Assembly: GCA_002269645.1 (NCBI GenBank)
Contig: NIVC01000782.1
Coordinates: 62,001-126,000, forward strand
Source: Macrostomum lignano
Taxonomy: Eukaryota
Length of the DNA stretch: 64,000 nt
Direction: 5' to 3'
The translations under genes were made by a program, and so were the position numbers. This document shows positions 6,501 through 53,882 of the stretch, one piece after another. How positions within the stretch are numbered: position 1 is the stretch's first letter; every line of letters begins with the position of its first letter. The notes below the pieces were generated by a model that did no database searches, was not told where the DNA came from, and worked only from the letters and a program-made list of their open reading frames with translations.

Positions 6501-6666
6501 TGAAATTTGTCAGAAAACTCGGAAAAGCGCTGAGATAAAAGTTACTCAAGTATGACTAAAACTTTAAATTTATTTCGCCAGTCATGGCTACAAGTTTTCT
6601 CTATGGAACTTGTCAGGTATAACCGCGAAGTCTCAATTTTCTTCACATTTCTTCTCGTCACTCCAG

Positions 6667-7016
6667 CCTCCCCTGTCGAGATGTCGCTCTCCAACAAATC
6701 CCTCATAGCAACCCAGCCACATCCGGACAGTCTAGCCGACTTCAGCATCCCTGAGCCTCAGTCGTTGCCGGGGCAACGCTATCGCCTTGGCGACATGCTG
6801 TGGGCGAAAGTGGGCAGCCACCCCTACTGGCCGTGCATGGTGTACTTTGGCCCCGAGTCCAACACCATCTGCAAGCCGCACAGCAAGGCGGGGACCCGGT
6901 ACGCATATCATGTGCAGTTCTTCGGGCCGCTAGTTGAAAGGGCCTGGGTGCCCGACAATGCCAACTTGCTGCAGTTCCACGGCAAGGCTGCGTTCGACGA
7001 GTACGTGGAGGAGCAG
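6667..7016 (+). CDS. NSD: NSD-like exon 1: first PWWP domain
   Basis: YRLGDMLWAKVGSHPYWPCMV...YHVQFFG...ERAWV; acceptor ctccag|, donor cag|GTGAGT at 7017. Confidence 0.85.
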
Positions 7017-7064
7017 GTGAGTTACTTTGGCATCTGTCATTCTCATCGTGTCTCTTCAGTCCTG

Positions 7065-8070
7065 TGAGACACCTTCAGATCTTACAGGAAACCCACAAGA
7101 ATTACCTTCAGACCCTACAGGAAGTCCCTCAGACACTGCAAGAATCTCCCTCAGATACCACAAGAATCTCCCTCAGACACCACAAGAATCTCCCCTCAGA
7201 CACCACAAGAATCTCCCTCAGACACCACAAGAATCTCCCCTCAGACACCACAAGAATCTCCCCTCAGACACCACAAGAATCTCCCCTCAGACACCACAAG
7301 AATCTCCCTCAGACACCACAGGAATCTACCTCAGATACCACAAGAATCTCCCTCAGACAGCACAAGAATCTCCCTCAGATACCACAAGAATCTCCCTCAG
7401 ACACCACAGGAATCTCCCTCAGACACCATAGGAATCTCCCTCAGACACCACAATAATCTCCCCTCAGACACCACAGGAATCTCCCTCAGACACCACAATA
7501 ATCTCCCCTCAGACACCACAATAATCTCCCCTCAGACACCACAAGAATCTCCCCTCAGACACCACAAGAATCTCCCCTCAGACACCACTAGAATCTCCCC
7601 TAAGACACCACAATAATCTCCCTCAGACACCACAAGAATCTCCCCTCAGATACCACAAGAATCTCCCCTCAAACACCACAAGAATCTCCCCTCAGACACC
7701 ACAAGAATCTCCCCTCAGATACCACAAGAATCTCCCCTCAGACACCACAGGAATCTCCCTCAAACACCACAAGAATCTCCCCTCAGACACCACAGGAATC
7801 TCCCTCAGACACCACAAGAATCTCCCCTCAGACACCATAGGAATCTCCCTCAGACACCACAATAATCTCCCCTCAGACACCACAGGAATCTCCCTCAGAC
7901 ACCACAATAATCTCCCTCAGACACCACAAGAATCTCCCCTCAGATACCACAATAATCTCCCCTCAGACACCACAGGAATCTCCCCTCAGACACCACAGGA
8001 ATCTCGCCTCAGACACCACAGGAATCTCCCCTCAGACACCACAATAATCTCCCCTCAGACACCACAGGAG
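7065..8070 (+). repeat. Intron 1 minisatellite, 22-23 bp CTCAGACACCACAAGAATCTCCC
   Basis: Direct tandem units. Confidence 0.9.
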
Positions 8071-8102
8071 TCGCAACTCCAGAATCCCCGCTCTCTCCGC
8101 AG

Positions 8103-9149
8103 GGATGGCGCACCAAGGCGGCCCGAGCCCAGTTCGAAGTTCGGCCCCGGATTCAACCAGTCTGGGAGGCCAGCTGGCGGGAGGCTGAGGAGGCGCTCAA
8201 GCTGCCTCATTTGGAGCGAATGTACCGCTTCGGCCGTGTCTACTATGACGATTCCACACCGAAGACTTCCAATTCAGGGACCCCGTCGGAGAACCCGGCC
8301 AAGAAAGATGCCCACAGTGACAAGCGAGCAGGTCGAACTCGGGTCGTCAAGGAGGAAAGCGACAGCGACTGGAGTGAAAGTTCTCACCGACAGCAGCAGC
8401 AATGCAGAGCTGCTACTTCTAGTAGTAAGAAAAAGCATTGGACAGCGGCGGTGGTGAAGCCTTCGGCACCTGTTCAACGAACTTCAGCTGTCAGTCAGCA
8501 GGAGGTTCGGGCACAGGTGGACAACCAGGAGGCTCCCAACAGCATTGACAGCGACTCCGACAGCTCCAGCTCATCCTCCTCGCGTGATGACGACGGCTCG
8601 CAGAAGTCTTCAACAACTGGCTCAGCGATTCGATTTCAATTCCAGCGATTGAAACCGCCGCCACCGTTGGGGCCATCGGCGAAGCGGCGGCTCCTCGACA
8701 GTCTGCAGTTGGCCGTGTGCGGCCGCTGCGAAGAGCCGTCAAATCCTGCTGGGCCGCCCGGCACTCTGGCCGCCTGTCAGGGCGTCTGCGCTCGCCTGTT
8801 CCACCAGGACTGCCTGCTGCGTAGGCAGCCAAAACTGCTGTGCGACAACTGCTGCCGTCCTGACAAGCCTGGCGGCCTCTGCGGACTCTGCGATCGGCCT
8901 GTTGCCATGGCAACCGTTGCTATGGGCCCCGATCGGCGAGCCGTGTGCCAGACCTGTTCTAGGGTGTATCACGGAGGCTGTCTGGATGACCTGCTGGATG
9001 CGGCTAGGGCTGCTGGTCTGAGCTCCGGTGCGAGTCACAGGTTGCTGGCTCGGTGGGATGCTGACAGCTTGATTGCCTGTCCGAGGCACGCCTGCAGGAG
9101 CTGCGTTCTTGACGGCTGCTCTGCGGGGCAGGCGGCTGTGGGAGTTCAG
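8103..9149 (+). CDS. NSD: NSD-like exon 2: PWWP C-terminal helices, Ser-rich linker, PHD1 and PHD2
   Basis: WEASWREAEEALK; CGRC...CQGVCARLFHQDC...CDNC; CGLC...CQTCSRVYHGGC...CPRHACRSC; acceptor ctctctccgcag|, donor cag|GTAGGA. Confidence 0.85.
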
Positions 9150-9162
9150 GTAGGATGTGCTG

Positions 9163-10095
9163 CTCAGTGTGTCTCATGTGCTCAGTGTGTCTCATGTGCT
9201 CAGTGTGTCTCATGTGCTCAGTGTGTCTCATGTGCTCAGTGTGTCTCATGTGCTCAGTGTGTCTCATGTGCTCAGTGTGTCTGATGTGCTCAGTGTGTCT
9301 CATGTGCTCAGTGTGTTTGATGTGCTAAGTGTGTCTCATGTGCTCAGTGTGTCTCATGTGCTCAGTGTGTCTCATGTGCTGCTCACTGTGTCTCATGTGC
9401 TTTCAGTGTGTCCTATGTGCTCACTGTGTCTCATGTGCTCTCACTGTGTCTCATGTGCTCTCACTGTGTCTCATGTGCTCTCACTGTGTCTCATGTGCTC
9501 TCACTGTGTCTCATGTGCTCAGTGTGTCTCATGTGCTCTTAAAGTCTCACGTGATCTAGCCACTGTCTCACGTGATCTAGTCACTGTCTCACCTGATCTA
9601 GCCACTGTCTCACCTGATCTAGCCACTGTCTCACCTGATCTAGCCACTGTCTCACCTGATCTAGCCACTGTCTCACCTAATCCAGCCACTGTCTCACCTG
9701 ATCTAGCCACTGTCTCACCTGATCTAGCCACTGTCTCACCTGATCTAGCCACTGTCTCACCTGATCTAGCCACTGTCTCACCTGATCTAGCCACTGTCTC
9801 ACCTAATCCAGCCACTATCTCACCTGATCTAGCCACTGTCTCACCTGATCTAGCCACTGTCTCACCTGATCTAGCCACTGTCTCACCTGATCTAGCCACT
9901 GTCTCACCTGATCTAGCCACTGTCTCACCTGATCTAGCCACTGTCTCACCTGATCTAGCCACTGTCTCACCTGATCTAGCCACTGTCTCACCTGATCTAG
10001 CCACTGTCTCACCTGATCTAGCCACTGTCTCACCTGATCTAGCCACTGTCTCACCTGATCTAGCCACTGTCTCACCGGATCTAGCCACTGTCCCC
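9163..10095 (+). repeat. Intron 2 minisatellites: 18/20-bp TGCTCAGTGTGTCTCATG then 21-bp CTAGCCACTGTCTCACCTGAT
   Basis: Two abutting arrays, junction near 9540. Confidence 0.9.
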
Positions 10096-10100
10096 ACCAG

Positions 10101-10726
10101 GTCAGCTGTGTCCGCTGCCCAGCCGCCTACCACAGCAGCCCTCGCTGTGTCCCAGCCGGCAGCCACTTCCTGACCCCAGCCTTCATCATCTGCCCGGACC
10201 ACCTGCTCTCCGACTCCTCAAAGCGGCGCTCCAGCTGCTCAGCCACGGCCACGCGTCACGTGAACACCTCCTGGTGCTTCGCCTGCCTTCGCTCCGGCGG
10301 CCTGTCGGGCTGTCAGCGCTGTCCAGCCTCCTGCCACATCGCCTGCCTGCCCGACTCTCCATCAGCCGCCCCAGCTGTGGCTCCGTTCACCTGCGCCCCC
10401 TGCCGGCTCAGCTGGCAGCCTCGATGCGGCGACATCGTCTGGGTGAAGGTCGGCCCATTCCGCTGGTGGCCCTGCGAGATCCTGCTGGCACAGCACGCGC
10501 CTGAGAACATCCAGCGACTGGGCAGGCAGCTGGGCACTTTTCCCGTGCGCTTCTTCGGCACTGACGAGTACTATTGGGTGTCCCTGGCTCGCCTGTTCCC
10601 CTTCAAGGACGGCGATCTGGGCGAGTCCGCGGCTGCCGCTGCCGGATCGGCCGGGACTGAGACGGCTGAGCTGATGGACAAATTCAACGAAGGGGTGGCC
10701 TTGGCTCAGGAGGCCTGGCGACTCAG
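10101..10726 (+). CDS. NSD: NSD-like exon 3: PHD3, PHD4 and second PWWP
   Basis: VSCVRCPAAYH...CVPAGS...IICPDH; HVNTSWCFAC..GG...CQRCPASCHIACL; GDIVWVKVGPFRWWPCEI...FPVRFFGTDEYYWV. Confidence 0.9.
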
Positions 10727-10744
10727 GTGTGCATCTGCTTATTG

Positions 10745-11335
10745 TTGTAGCCTCTGGGATGCTTCATCTCATTAATCCCAGCTTCTCTGAGATGCTTCAT
10801 CTCCTATTCATCCCAGCCTCCCTGAGATGCTTCATCTTTTATTCACCCCAGCCTCCCTGAGATGCTTCATCTATTCATCCCAGCGTCTCTGAGATGCTTT
10901 TTTTTCTATTCATCTTAGCCTCACTGAGATGCCTCATCTCCTATTCATCCCAGCCTCCCTGAGATGCTTCATCTCCTATTCATCCCAGCCTCTGAGATGC
11001 TTCATCTCCTATTCACCCCAGCCTCTCTGAGATGCTTCATCTCCTATTCATCCCAGCCTCCCTGAGATGCTTCATCTATTCATCCCAGCCTCCCTGAGAT
11101 GCTTCATCTACTATTCATCCCAGCCTCTCTGAGATGCTTCATCCCCTATTCATCCCAGCCTCTCTGAGATGCTTCATCTATTCATCCCAGCCTCCCTGAG
11201 ATGCTTCATCTCCTATTCATCCCAGCCTCCCTGAGATGCTTCATCTTTTATTCACCCCAGCCTCCCTGAGATGCTTCATCTATTCATCCCAGCCTCTCTG
11301 AGATGCTTCATCTCCTATTTATCCCAGCCTCACTC
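10745..11335 (+). repeat. Intron 3 minisatellite, about 30-34 bp GAGATGCTTCATCTCCTATTCATCCCAGCCTC
   Basis: Direct tandem units. Confidence 0.9.
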
Positions 11336-33439: not shown

Positions 33440-34835
33440 TAGAATATTAGAATAAGTGAGTTACAGCAAGCATTACAATGTAAAAGATTTGAAAATAGAA
33501 AAACAGTACAATTTTTCTATTTTTAGCACTGCTAGAAGCCATACGCTGCGCCGGCAAAACCGTGGAAAGACCAGAAAATTCCAGACACTAGTAGCTGGTG
33601 AGTGACCTGGTAATATACCAGGTAAATTAGCCTGGTATAATACGATGTAGCACTAACAATTTATATTTATATATATATATTCCAACACACTTAAGCTTAA
33701 GCATTCAGCTCGATCTCTCTCGACACATCGCAAATCAGCCATCGTTGCGGCCAGCAATGCCAGCAGCAGACGTCAGCGAGCAGCTCAGCAGCAGCCCGAC
33801 AGCCACCTCCAGCCCCATCGTTGCGGCCTGGGACGCAGAGCTCATGGCAGATTCGCAGGTTGGTTTTTGAGCTTCTGTGATTCTCAAGCATTAGTGAGGC
33901 TTGACAGCCCTGAGTGCATGCTGAAATTCTTTTTCTCTGAAATCCGGCTTTTCAGAGACCTTTGCAACCTGCTGGCTGAGCGATGGCAGCTGCATCTCAG
34001 TGTGTGAATCAATGTGACTCACACTGACACATTTGTACAGATAAAATGAGATGAGATGTCAGTGATTTGCTTCAAATATTGACTTTTCATACATATTATA
34101 TTCAGTTATTTATTCTGTTGATGTTGCGTTAAAATCCATAATACTGCAGCACTGAACTCGACTCCCACCGCCCGAAAACCCCACGGCTCAACCGAATCGA
34201 ATCAGTTAATCTACTTGGGCACAGGTAAACAAAGTTCAATAAGCAACTTATTGATTTTGAAAAATGTGATAAACACACGAGCTGCTACAGGACAGCTGTG
34301 ATACACTGGCACACATCACATGCACATTTTCATCTTAATTAACATGAAAAGCTCAGGTACTGCAACAGTTTATCAGCCTTGATTGAGCTCAGATAGAATT
34401 ACAGAATGAGCACAAGTGATGTCACTGATTGGCAGCCTTCATATCGATTTCTGTTGCTCCAAATGTTGTTTCAGGACATGCGACTGATGACTGCATGCGT
34501 CAGAGCGATTTAGGCTTCTCCCTTCTGTTTGCTTCTCTGCTTCTGCCTATTTATTAATAATTAATGCGCAGGCCGATAAATGCTGATTTTCATATTTTAT
34601 AATATTATCTGTGGCAAACTAATTATTCAATATTATAACTAAAAAAACAAATACAAACGGCTAATGAGGAATAGAATCTCCATTTGTGAATATAAATCTT
34701 CTGGTAGCCTGAACAGTAGTAACTAGAGAATTTGTCTTGTTTTAATTCTGGAGAAAAATGAATTAAGAGAACCAGCATCGTTCGCTCGTGCATGCACAAG
34801 GTAGCTAAAAATAGCCACAGAAAATATCTGAGTGA

Positions 34836-35045
<210 letters not shown>

Positions 35046-35127
35046 TAGTGTGGGGGTGTCACTCTTAGCTCCTAAAATCCTAAAGGAGAAAACCTAACTC
35101 CCAACTCCTAAAAAATTTAGTCACTCC

Positions 35128-35818
35128 AGTAGAAGGCATGAGGGGGCTTCTGGGACAAAATTTTTCACCTCCTCCATAATCCCATTAAATCCATCCATAT
35201 TATCCCTGACAGAATCAGAAAAAAGGGGGGTCGCACTCGCTCACAAAACGTCCTCCAGAATCCACCTAAATCCATCCATATTATCCACGACAGAATCTTG
35301 AAAAAGGGGAGGGGTCGCACTTGCTCCGAAAACTTCGAACATAATCCCATTAAATCCATCCATATTATCCCTGACAGAATCAGAGCATAACAAGTGTCCA
35401 CTAACACCTGTTATACTCACTGACACTGACATAATCCACTAACATCCACCCAGAAACAATCAGAAAATAATCTGTATTCTTTTCCCCACATTCAATCCAA
35501 AGCGGCGAAACCAAATCCCTAAAACTTTAAATTATCAGCGCAGGGTCCTTACCCTTTGAAAAAAAATTAAATTCTTAATAAAAATGTTTCCAATCGTCTC
35601 TCCAGGTTCTTATTACAAAGCGCACGAGCCTAATTACAAGAGCAAGTACCGATGCAAACTTGAATGCAGCGAGTATATGAGAAAATATTGGCCCGTCGTT
35701 GATATCAATGTCTCTAATATTAATCTAGCTCTCCAAAGACACTGGTTTTATAAGTATGGAGTAGTCATTAACGATTACGACAGCTACTATAACTTTGCAG
35801 AAATCATTAGGCAATTGT
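35128..35818 (+). repeat. Polinton left terminal inverted repeat (about 690 bp)
   Basis: Reverse complement of about 49975-50914; contains 3 units of an approximately 82-bp internal repeat and a small ORF. Confidence 0.9.
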
Positions 35819-35820
35819 AG
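35584..35820 (+). CDS. Small Tyr/Cys-rich protein encoded in left TIR (78 aa)
   Basis: Paralogue of 49973-50212 with many synonymous differences and a codon-length indel; A-run before ATG. Confidence 0.7.
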   Translation: MFPIVSPGSYYKAHEPNYKSKYRCKLECSEYMRKYWPVVDINVSNINLALQRHWFYKYGVVINDYDSYYNFAEIIRQL

Positions 35821-36217
35821 AATGTCGTTACGATACGCTTTAAGACTAAGACTGCATTAATAGATATTTTTACGCATGGTATTTTGCTGTGTGGCGGGTG
35901 GGTGATAGCGGAATGGGTATGGCAGCTGTTTCTTGTCATGGCGCGAGCGGCGTGTGCAGCATAGAGAAAAAAGCTTTTGCCCAGCTCAAGCCTTAACTAG
36001 CTCAGAAGATCCCTTGCCTAACTTCAGAAACGCCCATTTAGTTCCTTGTTTAAACCCCCAGCCTTTTCAACCCCCAGCTCTTTCAGCAGTCTTCCTAGCT
36101 CTTTCCCAGGCAACCCCAATCAACCATTAATAGAAAATACTGGCTATAAGTAGAAAATCTGCGGGTTTCCCTTCTAGAATTCGAATTCTAGAAAATTCTA
36201 GAATAAAAAGAAAATCC

Positions 36218-37129
36218 ATGGATTCCCGCGCCCACACCAATGGTCACCAATGGTATATATACAGCCGATTCACACCGCCCCTCGCCTCGCCTCGCCCCTC
36301 GCCTCGCCTCGCCTTGCCTGCCACACTGTATAATACACTGAGAAAAATTGCTAGAGCTCTTAAAGAGTCTCAGATTATCAGCAAAGCTATATCCTCTCTG
36401 AGCATGGCCGAAACAATCGCCAGTACAGGATTAACTGACGATATGGAAGGATTATTGACAAAGGATAAAACTGAAGCGAAAGCTTTCTTCGAAGAACTTT
36501 TGAGAGAGATTCCTGACGAACGAAAAGAATTTTGGTGTGATAAAGTCAATTCAACTTGGGACTTGGAAGGATCATCAATTCGACTGGAAGACCTCTTCAC
36601 TGGAGACAACGACGATGAGGAAGACAACTCAAAGAAGAAAGAGGAAATGGAAAAGAAGAAGAAAAAGAGAATTGAAGAACTCAAGAAGACTTTAAAAGAA
36701 AAGGTAGTGAAAGGAAAACTGAATGTGATTTGCAACCCAGCATTTGAGAACTTTCACTACGATCGGAAGAAGCCCCTAAGTGAGGCATCAGAATCACTGA
36801 CGAGAATAAATGTGGCAATTACTCACAATTCGAGGAATATCGTTGGCTTCGCCGTTCAAGCTGGCCTAATTCTCTCTCAAGTTCAACTGAAGTTGAAGCG
36901 AAAGAAAGGAGCATTCAAGAAATTCCTGGAAGAGAAGAACGACAGAGGCCAGCCGAAGATTGGAATGAAGAAGACAAGTGCATACTTCTACATGAAGCTC
37001 GCTAAACTTGCAGAAAGCTATCCAACAATTCAACAGCTGGCGATGCCACTAAGGGATCTGCAAGTGATTCTATCAATTCTAGAAGACGTTTGCAAGAGTG
37101 ATGAAGGTTTTTGGACTATTCTTCAGTGA
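36218..37129 (+). CDS. Polinton hypothetical protein; acidic/Lys-rich linker plus C-terminal helical domain resembling DUF3102 (start may be 36404)
   Basis: Long open frame; AVQAGLILSQVQ...GAFKKFLEE...KTSAYFYMKLA pattern. Confidence 0.6.
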   Translation: MDSRAHTNGHQWYIYSRFTPPLASPRPSPRLALPATLYNTLRKIARALKESQIISKAISSLSMAETIASTGLTDDMEGLLTKDKTEAKAFFEELLREIPDERKEFWCDKVNSTWDLEGSSIRLEDLFTGDNDDEEDNSKKKEEMEKKKKKRIEELKKTLKEKVVKGKLNVICNPAFENFHYDRKKPLSEASESLTRINVAITHNSRNIVGFAVQAGLILSQVQLKLKRKKGAFKKFLEEKNDRGQPKIGMKKTSAYFYMKLAKLAESYPTIQQLAMPLRDLQVILSILEDVCKSDEGFWTILQ

Positions 37130-37603
37130 AGGACATTTGAAGGTCAAACTTTTCCAACGCGTTGGAATTTTTTATTTGAATAACTAACTTTGTTGTGTTT
37201 TTTTCTTTAATGTCTACTCAATAGAAATTATATCTCTTTTTAAAATAATTTCTTTAATGTTTACCATTCTTTAAATAGAAATTCGCGTTGAAAAATTTCT
37301 TATTTTTTTTCTCTTTTTAAAAATAGGATTATAAATAGAAGCATGCCTCTAATTTCATAACAGAATTTATTAGAAAGGCCGTCAATCAGTGCACACCTAG
37401 CTCTATACATGTAACTGTTCAACTCAACTGGAAACTTCAAGCCTAGGCTACACAACAATAAGGAAAGTGAAGGTTGCATAAATTAGGAAATGACTTCGAG
37501 ATAAGTGAGAAGAAAGACGAAGTGGGTGACCGAAACAATACGTATTAGCCACAATACACAGCACCAGGTCTGCCCTGTAAGCACATTTAAAATCCTTCCC
37601 GAC

Positions 37604-38092
37604 TCAAGCGCCTATCTCAACCCCCAGCTCTTTCAGCAGTCTTCCTAATACCTCGTTTGGAGCACACAAAATAAACCCCGCTCCCGAGCACTCCGCGCAC
37701 CCACCCTCTCTTCCCAAACACCCACCCTCGGCGCCCATTCCTAATCCCAGTTTTGCCTTACTAAAAATAACAGCTTTAACTAGCTTCCGAGCGATCGACT
37801 CACGAAATCCGCTTGAAGCCCCTATATTGTCTAGTCTCTTAAGCATTTCTTTGTCCCAGCGATTCTTCTCCTCAGGAAAATCTCTATATTTAACATCGTG
37901 CCACATACAGACAGAGTCTAGCTCGTTCACAGGCTCATGCCCAGGATTTGGGTTGTTGTTTCCATCCAGCTGTATTTCAAGTGGATTCAAAGGCCCACAA
38001 TATTTGTACCCGGGAACTGTCCAGCCTTTGTTTGGATGAGGAAGCTTTTCTATCAGTCCATGTGAATCTATTTTACCACCAGAGCGCTGCAT
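37604..38092 (-). CDS. PLA2X: parvovirus-type phospholipase A2 domain protein
   Basis: PGYKYCGP Ca-loop-like motif, PVNELD, HDVKY catalytic motif, KAKLGLG; ATG at 38092. Confidence 0.85.
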   Translation of the reverse strand: MQRSGGKIDSHGLIEKLPHPNKGWTVPGYKYCGPLNPLEIQLDGNNNPNPGHEPVNELDSVCMWHDVKYRDFPEEKNRWDKEMLKRLDNIGASSGFRESIARKLVKAVIFSKAKLGLGMGAEGGCLGREGGCAECSGAGFILCAPNEVLGRLLKELGVEIGA

Positions 38093-38122
38093 TATTTTAT
38101 TTAAAATTTTCTTTTTAAATAA

Positions 38123-38703
38123 ATGACAGATCAGAAACTTAAAAAACTCTACTACAGCAACAAAGGATTCTTTGAAGGCAAAAATGCCGTTAGTAAACTC
38201 ATGGAGCTGAGTAAGGAACCAAAAGCTACAGTAGAAAAATGGCTCTCTAAGCAGGCTGTCTTTCAAGTCTATTTCCCACCAGTAAAATTTGAAAGGCCCC
38301 ATTTCAGTATTTATAAACCTAATGAGGCGCACCAAGCAGATCTTCTGTTTCTCCCCAATGACTCGGGCTACAAGTATGCTCTCACAGTAATAGACATTGA
38401 TTTAAGGAAGTTCGCCCACTCAAGACGAAGAAGTCAGAGGTTGTTGCAGCCGCACTCCAAGATATTTATAAAAACTCACCCCTTAGTTACCCTGAAATCT
38501 TTATGACCGACCCGGGTAAGGAATTCATGGGTGCAGTGAAATCCCTTATGGAAAAGAAAAACACAGAGATTCGCTATGGCAGAACTGGGCTCCACAGAGA
38601 CCAGGCTTTTGTGGAAAGATTCAATCTAACTCTAGCCAAGAGGCTATTCAGGCCTTTAACCCTAAATCCCCCACACGGTCATTCACTAGAGCTGAACTCC
38701 TAG
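38123..38703 (+). pseudogene. Retroviral-like (rve) DDE integrase, frameshifted near 38400 and C-terminally truncated
   Basis: HQADL..LP.D.GYKYALTVID, TDPGKEF, VERFN.TL. Shifted frame reads KEVRPLKTKKSEVVAAAL. Frame stops soon after RLF. Confidence 0.9.
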
Positions 38704-38748
38704 TGATACCGGCTGACACAGAAATTAATTAAAATATTAAAATAAAAA

Positions 38749-39204
38749 ATGACAAAGATTGAAACCAGAACCATCAATAAACTCAATAAAATCATTGAAT
38801 CAAAGAAACCAGGTCTTATATCAATTAAAGGTGTCAAAGTAAAAATCGATCCCACGCAGCAAATACTTCAGTGTAATGAGCAAAGACACAGCATCACAGA
38901 TGAAAATTCAGGAGGAATCCTACCATTAGCAGCTCTTATCCCGATCATTGCAGGCGCTGTAAGTGCCGCAGGTGGTGTAGCTGGAGGTGTAGCAACTGCT
39001 GTTAAAGATGGTAATGATAGTGCCCACCAGCTAGAATTGCAAAAGATTGCAAGAGACAAAGGTATAACAATTAAGGCAGGAGAGGGCTGCCCTGGTTGTG
39101 ATGATCGTGATGATTGTGAGCATGAAAATTCTGTAAGCAAGTCTGACATTGTCAAAGCCATCATGACACTGCACAATGCTGGGTTTACAATAATGCGGAT
39201 GTGA
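38749..39204 (+). CDS. Adenovirus pX(mu)-like core protein candidate
   Basis: GGILPLAALIPIIAGAVSAAGG resembles adenovirus pX GGILPLLIPLIAAAIGA. Confidence 0.6.
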   Translation: MTKIETRTINKLNKIIESKKPGLISIKGVKVKIDPTQQILQCNEQRHSITDENSGGILPLAALIPIIAGAVSAAGGVAGGVATAVKDGNDSAHQLELQKIARDKGITIKAGEGCPGCDDRDDCEHENSVSKSDIVKAIMTLHNAGFTIMRM

Positions 39205-39328
39205 TGAGGTTTAAAACCCCACTTTATCCAGCTTCATAAACCTAGCGCTACTGATAGGATGTAGAAACAGTTCAACTTTTCTATCAGGGTGGTAACCCTC
39301 AAAATTATTTTATATTTTAGAGAAAAAA

Positions 39329-42300
39329 ATGCCAAAAGCCAATCCAGCAAGAGATTTAGTCAACAAATATTTTTCAAAAGGCGTCTCATTTCAAGACAAA
39401 AGTAATTTACTAAGAGAAGCATGTAAACAAAAGTTTAACACCGACCCTGGTCACCTGGGAAGCTATGAAAAACAGTTGGAAATCACCAATCAATTAGAAT
39501 CCAACCAGTATGCGCCTATAAAAAGTCCTGCAAAGGAACACCAAGAGAGGAGTCGAAACTTAGTTAACAAATACGAAACTCTCACTGGTGAAAAAACCAA
39601 GTACCCACAAAATAAGCAGGAACAAGAGAAATTAGAGCAATTAATCCATTTAAAAGAGTCGGAGCTTGCCATTGAAAAGATTAATTTTGCACAGAGGAAG
39701 TTTACAGAACATTACATAGAGTACACAATCCCAATTAAGGATACCACCGCAAACATCTACGACTATAAAGACAGCATTCAATCAGTTGTTGATCACACAC
39801 TCAAAACACGCAAGACCTTTAAACTACAGATATCATTCAAGATTGCGTTTTATATGCCTGCAAAACCCACTGAGCATCTCGAGTATTACATGACAACAAA
39901 GGCAAAGCCATTCACCCCTACAGACACACTGGATCCATTCCTTCAAGATGTCACTAAGAAAATTGAAGCGTTTACATCCAGAGGTTCCGGATGGGTCGTG
40001 GGAGGGATTCAAAGAGCGACTGTCATAGTCATGAAATATGACCCACTTAAAGCCTCCTCTTATATAGAGCTCCCGCATAAGCTAGCCGGTAAAAAAGCTT
40101 GCATAAATGTTAAAAATAAAGACAATTGCTGTGCTCTATGGGCAGTTCTTTCTGCACTTCTTCATGATAGTGTCCCTCACCACCCCGAAAGAACCTCAAA
40201 TTATCAAAATTATTTCAACTACTATCTTATCGAATGCGAAAAGAAGGGAATCAGGTTTGATAAAGGAGGCTTGGCGATCTCTCAGATCCCAAAACTAGAA
40301 GAAGTGTTTAATAACAAAATTAGAATCACAGTCTTTGAGTGGAGTGAAAAAACTGAGAAAGTTCAACTGGTCAGATGTAGCAAAGACGTTTTAGATCCTG
40401 AGGGGAAAGGCGGACTGAAGTGGATCTTCTAGTGATTGGTAATTTTACTAGAGGAGGCTCACTATGTTTGGGTTAAAGATCTTTCAAGACTCATTCACAA
40501 GCAGTTGAATAATCATCACGAGGCTGTTGCCATCTGCCGCTTGTGCCTTAAGCATTACAGTGGACCTGAACGCTTTGAAAAACTAGTAGAGCATGAATTA
40601 TCATGCGAGGATCACCCGACAAACTGCTCTCTTCCTTCAGCTGAAGAGAAGTATCTCCGGTTTAAGAACTATCACAAGATGGAGAAGCTCCCATTTGTTG
40701 TATATGCTGATTTCGAATGCTCAATCGTGCCGGAAACTCAAAAACAAACTCAAACTCAAAAACATGTCCCCAATTCAGTAGCATATGTCTTTATTACTAC
40801 AAAAGGACTTGTTGAGTATAATTATTTCTTTGGAGAGCAGTGTGTGGAGCAGTTTATTGCCAGAATGTTAGAGTTGCAAAAAGTTATTAGCACCCTTCAA
40901 CCTGTTCCAATAATGATGACTGAGGAGGATGAAAGCAATTTCCTATCAGCAACTCATTGCCACATCTGCAGGAAACAGTTAACTTGCACTGATATTAAAA
41001 ACCCCACCGTTAGGGACCACTGCCACTTTACTGGGAAATTTAGAGGTGCAGCGCATAACACCTGTAATCTAAAGCTAAAATCGACCATTCATGATCTAAC
41101 AATATTTTGTCACAACGCAAAGAACTATTCCAGACATACACCTTGACTGCATCGCAGAGAACAAGGAGAAGTTTAAGTGTGTTGATATTAAACAGGATAA
41201 TTCGGGTACAGGTAAAATAAGACTGAAGGATTCATATCAATTTCTAGCTGCCAGTCTAGACGAACTAAGCAAGAATCTAAAAGATGAACAATGTACATAT
41301 ACAAAGATGTTTGCAAGTAAAATTAACAACAGTGATGAATCATTTAAACTCCTGAGAACCAAAGGCTTCTACCCCTATGAAAATATTACTGGGTATCACG
41401 TATTTGAAGAAGGTTTACCACCACAAGAAAAGTTCTTTTCAAAACTAACAGACTCTGGAATCTCTGACAAAGACTATGAGCACGCGAAGCATGTCTATAA
41501 TTACTTTAATTGTCAAAACTTCTTCCAGTATCACCTGCTTTACCTCTACACAGATGTGTTTCTGCTGGCCGATGTGTTTGAAACTTTCAGATACACCTGG
41601 TACACAGCATATGGCCTCGATCCAGCACATTATGTGTCTCTGCCTGCCACTAGCTGGGAATCTTTGCTTAAAATGAAATGGGATCAAGATCCAGATTGGT
41701 ACATTGAACTTCTTACAGACATTGACATGTACAATTTTGTCGAATCGTCAAAGCGAGGGGGAATCTCAATTTGTGTTAACAGGTATGCAAAAGCAAACAA
41801 TCCCTACATTGGATCTTACAATAAAGAGCAACCCTCAAACTACATTACTTACTTGGACGCTAATAATCTCTACGGGTGGGCGATGAGTCAAGATCTTCCA
41901 GTTAGAGATTTTCGATGGCTACCCTCATCAGAATTCAAATGGGACTTTTCATTGGCTGCCATTTATGAAGTTGATGTTTACATTCCACCAGAGCTTCACG
42001 ACTATTTCTCTGACTTTCCACCCTTCCCAGAGAACATCAAGTGCCCGAAAATAATCGAAACTCCCAATGATAATAATGGAACTTGGCACCTGTCAGGAAC
42101 AGAAAAAGAACATACAGAGAAACTAACACAGAATCTAAACAACAAGACACGTTACAAAATCCATTACAAACTGCTTCAGTATTTTATCTCACTGGGTTGC
42201 ACGGTCACCATAGTTCACAGGGCTCTCACATTTACAGAGGAAGCGTGGATGAAACCCTACATTGATAAGAATACCCAGTTTAGGACCAAAGCAACCAACG

Positions 42301-50914: not shown

Positions 50915-53882
50915 CACTCCTAAAATTCCTAATGTGTCAGTCTGGTAATTGTGGCTCTTTGTGTGTCCCTAGGTAGTTGCAGCACTCTGTGTGACTGTGT
51001 ATCACAGAGTGTCTCTCTGTGTCTTTCAGGCATTTAGGGTGTAAATCTCAGTTGCTTTAGGTGTCACATAATGTGTACGCACTCCAGGTGTGCACTCCAG
51101 GTGTCACTCTCATCTCTCATCCAGCAGGTACAGCTGTCACTCTCATCTCTCATCCAGCAGGTACAGCTGTCACTCTCATCTCTCATCCAGCAGGTACAGC
51201 TGTCACTCTCATCTCTCATCCAGCAGGTACAGCTGTCACTCTCATCTCTCATCCAGCAGGTACAGCTGTCACTCTCATCTCTCATCCAGCAGGTACAGCT
51301 GTCACTCTCATCTCTCATCCAGCAGGTACAGCTGTCACTCTCATCTCTCACAGGCACTCCAGCTCTCACTGTCATCGCTGACAAGCACTCCAGCTGTCAC
51401 TCTCATCACTCACAGACACTCCAGCTGTCACTCTCATCACTGACAAGCACTCCAGCTCTCACTGTCATCACTGACAAGCACTCCAGCTGTCACTCTATTC
51501 ACTCACAGGCACTCTAGCTGTCACTCTCATCACTTACAAGCACTCCAGCTGTCACTCTCATCACTCACAGACACTCCAGCTGTCACTCTCATCACTGACA
51601 AGCACTCCAGCTTTCACTCTCATCACTGACAAGCACTCCAGCTGTCACTCTCATCACTCACAGACACTCCAGCTGTCACTCTCATCACTGATAAGCACTC
51701 CAGCTCTCACTGTCATCACTGACAAGCACTCCAGCTGTCACTCTATTCACTCACAGGCACTCTAGCTGTCACTCTCATCACTTACAGGCACTCCAGCTGT
51801 CACTCTCATCACTCACAGACACTCCAGCTGTCACTCTCATCACTGACAAGCACTCCAGCTTTCACTCTCATCACTGACAAGCACTCAGATGTCACTCTTA
51901 TCACTCACAGGCACTCCAGCTGTCACTCTCATCACTCACAGGCACTCCAGCTGTCACTCTCATCACTTACAGGCACTCCAGCTGTCACTCTCATCACTCA
52001 CAGACACTCCAGCTGTCACTCTCATCACTGACAAGCACTCCAGCTTTCACTCTCATCACTGACAAGCACTCAGATGTCACTCTTATCACTCACAGGCACT
52101 CCAGCTGTCACTCTCATCACTCACAGGCACTCCAGCTGTCACTCTCATCACTCACAGGCACTCCAGCTCTCACTCCCATCACTCACAGGCACTCCAGCTG
52201 TCACTTCCATCACTCACAGGCACTCCAGCTTTCACTCTCATCACTGACAAGCACTCAGATGTCACTCTCATCACTCACAGGCACTCCAGATGTCACTCTC
52301 ATCTCTCATCCAGCAGGTACAGCAACAGGTCCAGGCTGATAAGGATCAAAGGTCAAATTGTCTTTCAATGCATACTTTGGCGAGATCTTCAAGGGTATGT
52401 GTTCTTTGTGTTTTTTATTCTTTTCGTATATTCCAATTGCTTTTATACCAGTTCTAAAGAATATCTAATTAAGTTTTTCCTTGCCTTGCTTAAAGACAAC
52501 TATTGTTAGATTTTTTATTTCCAAATCTTTCTAATGACAGTGAAGGTGCCCAACTGGTCTGCTGATCATGCCATCAACTCTCTAAATTACTCAATGCAGG
52601 ACCCTATCCTCCGAGTTCTCTCTGGATTGCATCAAAAGGCCATCCAGACCTTCTGCGATCGCGTCTGAAGGTGCAAGAGCGCCAGACCAACAATCGTGGA
52701 GTGTCAGTGGGGGAAGCAATCGCGACAATGAAGGAGCTGACATGGCGCCTCTGCCGCCACCTGTGATGACAAAGCATCTGCTGACTCTGGCTGTAAGTGC
52801 TGATAATGCAGCCGTTTGGTTCACAACATTTATCTAGCTAGCTAGCTTTTTGCATTCATGTGTTCTTCATCTATCATATTGTATTATTTTGTATTTGTTT
52901 TCTGTATCTTTTTATTCGTTTTCCGTACTCATTTTCTGTATATATTTCATTATTGTTATTATGCTGTTTCTCGACGTTTCCTTGCATCCACATGTAATAC
53001 AGTTACTCTCTTGACGCGTTCTGCAGAAATTGCTGAGTGTAATCTTTATAATTGCATAATATACAATGCATTGAGTTAATTAAGTAGCCAATCATTATTG
53101 TGCTTCACTCTTCAGGCAGAATAATATTTTAAATAATATATTATTTTGCTAAGTACTATGAAAACCGATTTGTTTATTTTTATGCAAGCTAGTCGATGCA
53201 AAAGCAAATTCGGAAAAATACAACCTAATCGTAATTTAGTCGGATATTAGCGTCACATTTCGATCGGATTGCACGAGACAAATTCCTGCAGAAATTCCGA
53301 TCGGATTCCGACAAACCTTTTTTACTGGGAGAATGAGCACAAGCAAGGTGCACATGTCACTGATTGGCAGCCTTCGTATCGATTTCTGTTGCTCCAAATA
53401 ATGTTTCAGCACATGCGACTGATGACTGCATGCATCAGAAGAGAGCGATTTGGCCTCTCCCTTATTTTATAATGCTATCTGTGGAAAACTAATTATTCAA
53501 TATTCATATTCATAACGAAAAAAATGTAGTTAAAGGGATAATGAGGAATAAAATTAATTTCAAAACAAACAAATAGATACAAACAAAGAGATATATAGAC
53601 TTTGTTTGTGAATATAAATCTTCGCTTATTACTCTGGTAGCCTGAATAGTAGTAACTCAAGAATTTCCTCTTGTTTAAATTCTGAGGAGGGAAAAATTAG
53701 GAGAACCCCGGGGGAGAGTACGCTCGTACATATACTGTACTCGGTAGCTAAAAATAGCTACAGAAAATAGCCAAGCACGTACGAGCGTACAATTGAAGAG
53801 CTGCGGCAAATCCACGGTTTTTCCGGCCTATCATAGGCGTACATATTTTTCAGGGTGCACACAGCAACGGCCTGTTTGGTTG

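Follow-up and report, generated by a model that had tools for sequence, protein, structure and literature searches.

I analysed a 64,000-nucleotide window of a Macrostomum lignano contig (NIVC01000782.1, positions 62,001 to 126,000). It was found that an element of 15.8 kb with AGTAG...CTACT termini occupies positions 35128-50914 and is flanked on both sides by a 6-bp target-site duplication (TSD), CACTCC (35122..35127 on the left and 50915..50920 on the right, both unstranded). The left terminal inverted repeat (TIR; 35128..35820, plus strand) begins with AGTAG and ends internally with the stop codon of a short ORF; the right TIR lies at 49973..50914 on the minus strand. The TIR ORF encodes 78 amino acids on the left (35584..35820, plus; stop codon TAG) and 79 on the right (49973..50212, minus; stop codon TGA). 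Each TIR contains a tandem unit, which is 82-84 nt long and present in 2.6 copies in the left TIR (35170..35384, plus) and 82 nt long and present in 5.6 copies in the right TIR (50411..50875, minus). A short palindromic box (35543..35554, plus), a candidate promoter element, lies about 40 nt 5′ of the ATG and is also present at most sampled TIR ends that have no ORF.

Between the TIRs, a PLA2-domain ORF (37604..38302, minus; PF08398, E 5e-13) and a protein X-like (pX) ORF (38749..39204, plus; PF05829, E 1.7e-7) were found, together with a gene in two frames (38123..38703, plus) that I take to be integrase-like from its motifs and from longer ORFs in other copies. A 127-aa piece of the latter had no Pfam match and is 84-87% identical to the longer, 345-aa ORFs of other copies. 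A protein-primed PolB is present in several pieces (39329..43129, plus); PF03175 was detected on one piece (E 5.5e-13), the first piece, where an Alpha adintovirus would have an OTU domain at the PolB N-terminus, had no Pfam match, and an Endonuclease VII-like domain (40679-41146, plus; PF02945, E 7e-6) lies inside this region. An adenain-like protease (43213..43614, plus; PF00770, E 1.2e-4) and a packaging ATPase (45138..45938, minus; PF04665, E 7.5e-7) both score above the cut-off, and a double jelly-roll major capsid protein (47797..49083, plus; PF21738, E 1e-4) scores below it. The next ORF is a likely minor capsid gene, judging from its position and size (49105..49968, plus); its stop codon is 4 nt from that of the right TIR ORF, the two genes lying tail to tail. 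The PolB and integrase-like genes are frame-broken in this copy, and both TIR ORFs are in frame. At the left end, a 303-aa ORF (36218-37129, plus) had no Pfam match; its relatives, of varying lengths, occur in the left-end cassettes of other copies. Elsewhere in the window, host ORFs at 6534-10775 (plus) presumably represent exons for the PWWP and PHD-finger domains of a chromatin protein of the NSD type, and a PHD-like piece of 145 nt is repeated several times, including at 34828-34972.

The Pfam domains (PolB, ATPase, protease, capsid, PLA2, and pX) identify the element as a Polinton of the Alpha-adintovirus type. As far as the descriptions in PMC8502044 and PMC8097293 extend, Polintons/Mavericks of this type share its size of 15.8 kb, the TIRs starting with AGT, the 6-bp TSD, and the set of pfam03175 PolB, ATPase, protease, and capsid genes with PLA2 and pX domains. 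Unlike the Polintons described there, this element has a conserved gene as the inner edge of the TIR, and its PLA2 and pX domains are in separate ORFs. No report of Maverick transposable elements of Macrostomum lignano was found in the literature searched. Likewise, no report of TIR-borne genes or of RNase T2 in Polintons was found in the open-access literature searched.

A first-pass annotation had pointed out the twin ORFs, and both were found exactly where it placed them, pointing inward as the innermost part of each TIR. The 14 differing positions out of 79 consist of 13 amino-acid substitutions and a one-codon gap. The annotation had counted at least ten synonymous changes; 11 codons differ only synonymously, including AGC/TCC at Ser20, and the stop codons differ as it had noted. 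For the left vs right ORF, dN is 0.133 and dS is 0.41 (NG86; dN/dS 0.325, Fisher p 0.0026). Thus, the ratio of the window pair is 0.33, not near 1, which bears out the apparent purifying selection. The near-identity of the outer TIR holds in part: the first 90 nt differ at a single site, but the tandem unit differs in copy number. In the 95 nt 5′ of the ATG, there are 15 differing sites and three gaps. Thus, the left-right mismatch begins upstream of the ORF. The left-right homology of the TIRs ends where the stop codon begins, at its first base.

Are these two genes, or two alleles of one gene? I sampled the other copies of this family. Protein searches of the genome returned 614-625 candidates (approximately 620), of which only the best 150 were scored per search, so that divergent copies are under-sampled. 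The copies were mostly chosen by protein similarity, which favours intact and similar ORFs. The sample consists of 172 ends, 144 after de-duplication, of which 128 have an intact ORF. Ends with the likely minor capsid gene within 1.3 kb were called right, although long inserts may cause mislabelling. Pairs of ends came from known pairs and from regions 7-17 kb inward of 39 matches, whose partners were not inspected beforehand. In 29 of the 50 inward-facing pairs obtained, the TSDs match (with one mismatch or none); in 10, the ends are resolved but the TSDs do not match, and in 11, the ends are unresolved. Among 30 loci chosen by non-coding TIR DNA, the ORF is full length in 23, broken in six, and absent in one; among 21 partner TIR ends, the ORF is missing from five and truncated in two.

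Some ends and elements of this family have unusual structures. In L173 (1333-1410, minus), an in-frame internal deletion leaves a 27-aa ORF. Six TIR ends (L071, L078, L083, L086, L092, and L183) join other cassettes before the ORF; the palindromic box is kept in five of them, while L092 ends earlier. The elements L102-L107, L124-L125, L100-L101, and L130-L131 have the capsid-side end at both termini, that is, an inverted duplication, and are TSD-flanked and 8.5-22.7 kb in length. In these inverted-duplication elements (L100-L107, L124-L125, and L130-L131), the TIR homology reaches from 1.1 to at least 1.7 kb past the ORF start. In two cases of TSD-unmatched pairs (L108/L109 vs L110/L111, and L068/L010 vs L030/L018), one flank hexamer is the TSD of another element; these are either ectopic recombinants or assembly joins.

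In the 128 intact ends, six of six variant blocks have no association with the end (p 0.13-1.0), and both states of every tested block are present at left and right ends. All four gametes were found in 13 of 15 block pairs; for the two multi-nucleotide blocks, the counts are 37/36/47/7. The mean distances for left-left, right-right, and left-right comparisons are 25.9, 25.2, and 25.4 nt, respectively (permutation p 0.52). The median ORF distance is 1.5 nt within elements (n=22) vs 25 nt between elements (8,077 pairs; p 1e-8). The 22 pairs are what remains of the 29 once duplicates and pairs with a non-intact ORF are set aside; of the seven pairs thus lost, three had differences of 30-37 nt. 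In the whole set of 29 TSD-matched elements, which also holds one truncated copy and one pair that is a haplotig-like duplicate, the ORFs differ by 0 nt in seven elements, by 3 nt or less in 14 (including these seven), and by 5-37 nt in another 14. The window pair is 38 nt apart in the codon alignment, the largest distance among the 22 intact within-element pairs. Since 17.6% of the between-element ORF pairs are at least 37 nt apart, 38 nt is an ordinary distance between alleles. Moreover, the window pair is discordant at 25 codons, and for 22 of them both states recur in at least three other copies, at either type of end. Thus, the divergence predates the insertion, as the first-pass annotation had argued, and these shared polymorphisms together with the lack of end-specific lineages indicate that it is allelic, not paralogous. 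It is highly probable that the twin ORFs represent two alleles of a single TIR gene, conserved and polymorphic, in a high-copy Polinton family, likely combined in this element by recombination between family members.

The main rival to this explanation is that the mismatch arose after the insertion by gene conversion, with another copy in the genome as donor, or in the assembly, and not in a replicating element. The approximately 620 near-identical candidates in the genome could have served as templates, the flank hexamers shared by two of the 10 TSD-unmatched pairs point in the same direction, and so do the frame-broken pPolB and integrase genes of the window element. Haplotig-like duplicates are also present in the assembly; given these and the 10 unmatched pairs, some mosaics of the family may be assembly joins or products of post-insertion conversion. 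However, the TSD of the window element is intact, and its termini differ at 1 of 90 sites, as in the TSD-matched elements (median 1) and unlike the unmatched pairs (mostly 6-8). Both ORFs remain in frame, and each is at least 10-12 nt away from all other sampled copies, so that no single sampled donor accounts for the mismatch. For the window element, this rival seems unlikely. The first-pass reading of two maintained paralogues that escaped TIR homogenisation, one at each end, drew on a divergence that is indeed large, shaped by selection, and unsurpassed among the intact within-element pairs, but it is refuted within the sampled copies by the missing allele-end association, by left-right distances equal to those within either end, by the identical ORFs of seven of the 29 elements, and by the ordinary size of the 38-nt difference, and is thus extremely improbable.

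If the twin ORFs are alleles, how do the two ends of an element stay alike? In 27 elements, the ratio of within-element to between-element divergence in five regions is 0.24, 0.36, 0.33, 0.36, and 0.55; it is lowest in the terminal 90 nt and highest in the 3′ half of the ORF, and the gradient is non-monotonic across the middle three regions. In 16 of 29 elements, the TIR ends inward at the stop codon; in 12 of 29, its inner edge lies from 415 to at least 1,700 nt further inward. Nineteen junction classes, which are different sequences, begin directly after the last codon. Recombination between family members may bring mismatched alleles together in one element. A paired-TIR (racket) replication intermediate has been proposed for Polintons in the parts of PMC4196379 and PMC4046053 consulted, and correction may start at the termini via such a racket or panhandle intermediate. 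End-to-end homogenisation would then weaken inward, leaving mismatched ORF alleles uncorrected. The location in the TIR would also double the gene dose, as in the case of poxvirus genes in inverted terminal repeats (ITRs).

In the family as a whole, piN/piS is 0.33 (codon bootstrap 0.21-0.52). The ratio of synonymous to nonsynonymous variants is 29:18 for common variants vs 16:41 for singletons (p 7e-4), where the counts exclude four indel columns and multi-step changes and the sampling by protein similarity biases the selection estimate. The TIR ORF is a constrained gene under purifying selection. No sequencing run is recorded as RNA; four of the runs are spliced RNA libraries, as seen from two GT-AG joints with the intron uncovered at a host gene. 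Contigs of these libraries cover the TIR ORF and the outer TIR alike, and carry-over of DNA from a high-copy repeat is possible. The immediate-early role suggested in the first-pass annotation would be no more than a hypothesis. In summary, the TIR ORF is an accessory gene that evolves under constraint, had gone unrecognised, and belongs to an animal Polinton of very high copy number.

No family had been recognised for the encoded protein. At the Pfam cut-offs, this remains true. Below them, RNase T2 gives a signal, in that residues 26-70 are similar to its helical core. In the left ORF, the segment of amino acids 26-64 (35659..35775, plus) corresponds to the part that matches positions 66-101 of PF00445 in other alleles, below the cut-off. 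PF00445 was matched by five of 20 alleles and then by five of eight KSHWFEKHG-type alleles (E 0.003-0.006); the best score, 18.3 bits (E 0.0027), is below the curated cut-off of 26 bits, and the window's own two alleles had no Pfam match. All three PDB sequence matches of a KSHWFEKHG-type allele are RNase T2 enzymes (best E 0.0079), and PDB searches with profiles gave E about 1. The top atlas clusters are also RNase T2, with scores of 0.75-0.83 (0.82-0.83 for the KSHWFEKHG-type allele), which serve as a lead only. The PDB, PF00445, and atlas scores all rest on one signal of approximately 40 amino acids and are all sub-cut-off.

One register over helix-YWPD-N-H-KHG is common to the alignments with the Pfam model, the atlas clusters, and the T2 enzymes of humans and fungi. 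Helices are predicted at residues 21-35, 46-58, and 66-78, with no strands, in low-confidence models (pLDDT 58); if correct, they would match the T2 helices around CAS II in the same order. In the CAS II motif H-E-x-x-K-H, the first His is conserved in 128 of 128 intact copies and the Lys in 127 of 128. The Glu position is Trp in all 128, and the last His is present in 20 and replaced by Tyr in 107. The CAS I histidine motif is absent; the His found at position 14 or 15 varies between copies, and about 30 of the 128 lack it. The protein has neither a signal peptide nor a Cys after KHG. Given the absence of CAS I and of a signal peptide, the Trp in place of Glu, and the last His that is mostly Tyr, the protein is not classifiable as an RNase T2 and is predicted to be inactive. 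Compared with the RNase T2 family (PF00445), including its inactive protostome members as far as PMC4136927 describes them, the weak helix-YWPD and CAS II match and the order of the three helices are alike, while the length of 78-80 aa vs 188 profile positions, the lack of CAS I, the Glu-to-Trp change, and the missing signal peptide are different.

The RNase T2 genes of the host were also compared; one of their exons is identical to a protein labelled as Macrostomum lignano in its source. Searches with hhalign against the host T2 proteins gave a probability of <1%. In a shuffle test against the host T2 protein P0008, p was 0.002 for the best allele and 0.43 and 0.043 for the window alleles; against P0007, p was 0.36-0.46. 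A PF00445 search of the genome gave seven candidates, all at host exons, and no bridging viral copy. Fold searches with two pLDDT-58 models yielded no Foldseek match at E<=0.001, no VIA match at Z>=5, and no RNase T2 among the matches listed; with models of this quality, they would neither favour nor oppose the T2 likeness. In the host paralogue P0007 (G000:C195), the first His of CAS II is replaced by Glu (REEFKKHG). A family element was found inside a host RNase T2 gene, in an intron with a 28-bp tandem repeat (L235:1-4700, G000:C4945). The same insertion is present in C3540 and C2606, and G000:C195 has the gene region without it. This is probably chance, though odd given the T2 likeness of the ORF.

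Descent of the TIR ORF protein from RNase T2 is about evenly balanced. Somewhat short of even is the alternative that the protein is a lineage-specific orphan whose short, aromatic-rich match to RNase T2 is due to chance. No homologue outside this genome was found in any search. A word-based protein search found none near the ORF length and, among longer proteins, four candidates, none with E<=10. A profile search against 1.84 billion representatives gave four matches, all repeat proteins and none a true homologue. None of 37 pattern matches in viral contigs and none of 141 in metagenome contigs was confirmed, phage records gave two matches at E 1-3 only, and PHROGs and NCBIfam gave only weak, scattered matches. 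A likeness to the linker-histone winged helix was also checked and gave no match. These results, the Pfam cut-off that was never reached, and the hhalign probability would fit an orphan. On the other hand, the T2 enzymes of humans and fungi, the T2 Pfam model, and the T2 atlas clusters all rank first, in one common register.

A weaker rival to the T2 reading, and quite improbable, is an adintovirus 'Oncoid'-type Rb-binding protein that would drive cells into S phase via LxCxE. Such LxCxE genes are described in adintoviruses in the part of PMC8502044 consulted, and the motif (amino acids 26-30) is present in 110 of 128 intact copies, including the left ORF of the window and not the right. However, a K allele in which the motif is lost is common (17 of 128, at both ends, including the right copy of the window), the residues after the motif, which is part of a predicted helix, are basic and include no acidic CK2 site, and, on inspection of the sequence, paired CxxC motifs are absent, with one C-x3-C.

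The product of the TIR gene may be pictured as a predicted three-helix, non-catalytic binder, possibly derived from RNase T2. A doubtful but conceivable role is that of an accessory factor inside the cell, which would bind RNA or a host protein and not cut it. Non-catalytic binding by T2 fragments is known in that peptides of human RNASET2 bind actin, according to the part of PMC4341462 consulted, although the correspondence of these peptides with the TIR ORF is tentative. As a tentative scenario, for which the chances are below even, a Polinton would have acquired a helical core from a cellular RNase T2 and lost both catalytic halves. The result would be a 79-aa, double-dose pseudo-nuclease decoy in the TIR, whose allele blocks are shuffled between ends under polar, incomplete TIR correction across dozens of insertions.

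Genes in terminal repeats are known from other viruses. Like the poxvirus ITR genes described in PMC9973261, the TIR gene is duplicated by its location in a terminal repeat, mirrored probably by recombination, and placed at a movable inner boundary; unlike them, it belongs to an integrated, protein-primed element, with standing allelic mosaics between the ends in about half of the sampled copies. The TIRs of Megamimivirus are also gene-bearing, fast-changing regions, but no orthologue is common to all of them, as far as PMC13712841 reports, whereas one gene is present here across most sampled family ends. If the T2 link is true, the TIR gene would show a host nuclease pared down to a viral miniprotein that no longer catalyses, which is rare; without this link, the gene is a modest variant of the known duplication of ITR genes. 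The results also serve as a warning that TIR divergence is unsafe for dating Polinton insertions or for calling paralogues. Finally, this family offers a population-scale view of how Polinton ends stay alike, with strong correction at the termini, weaker correction inward, and a movable TIR edge, and the racket/panhandle model becomes testable from genomes.
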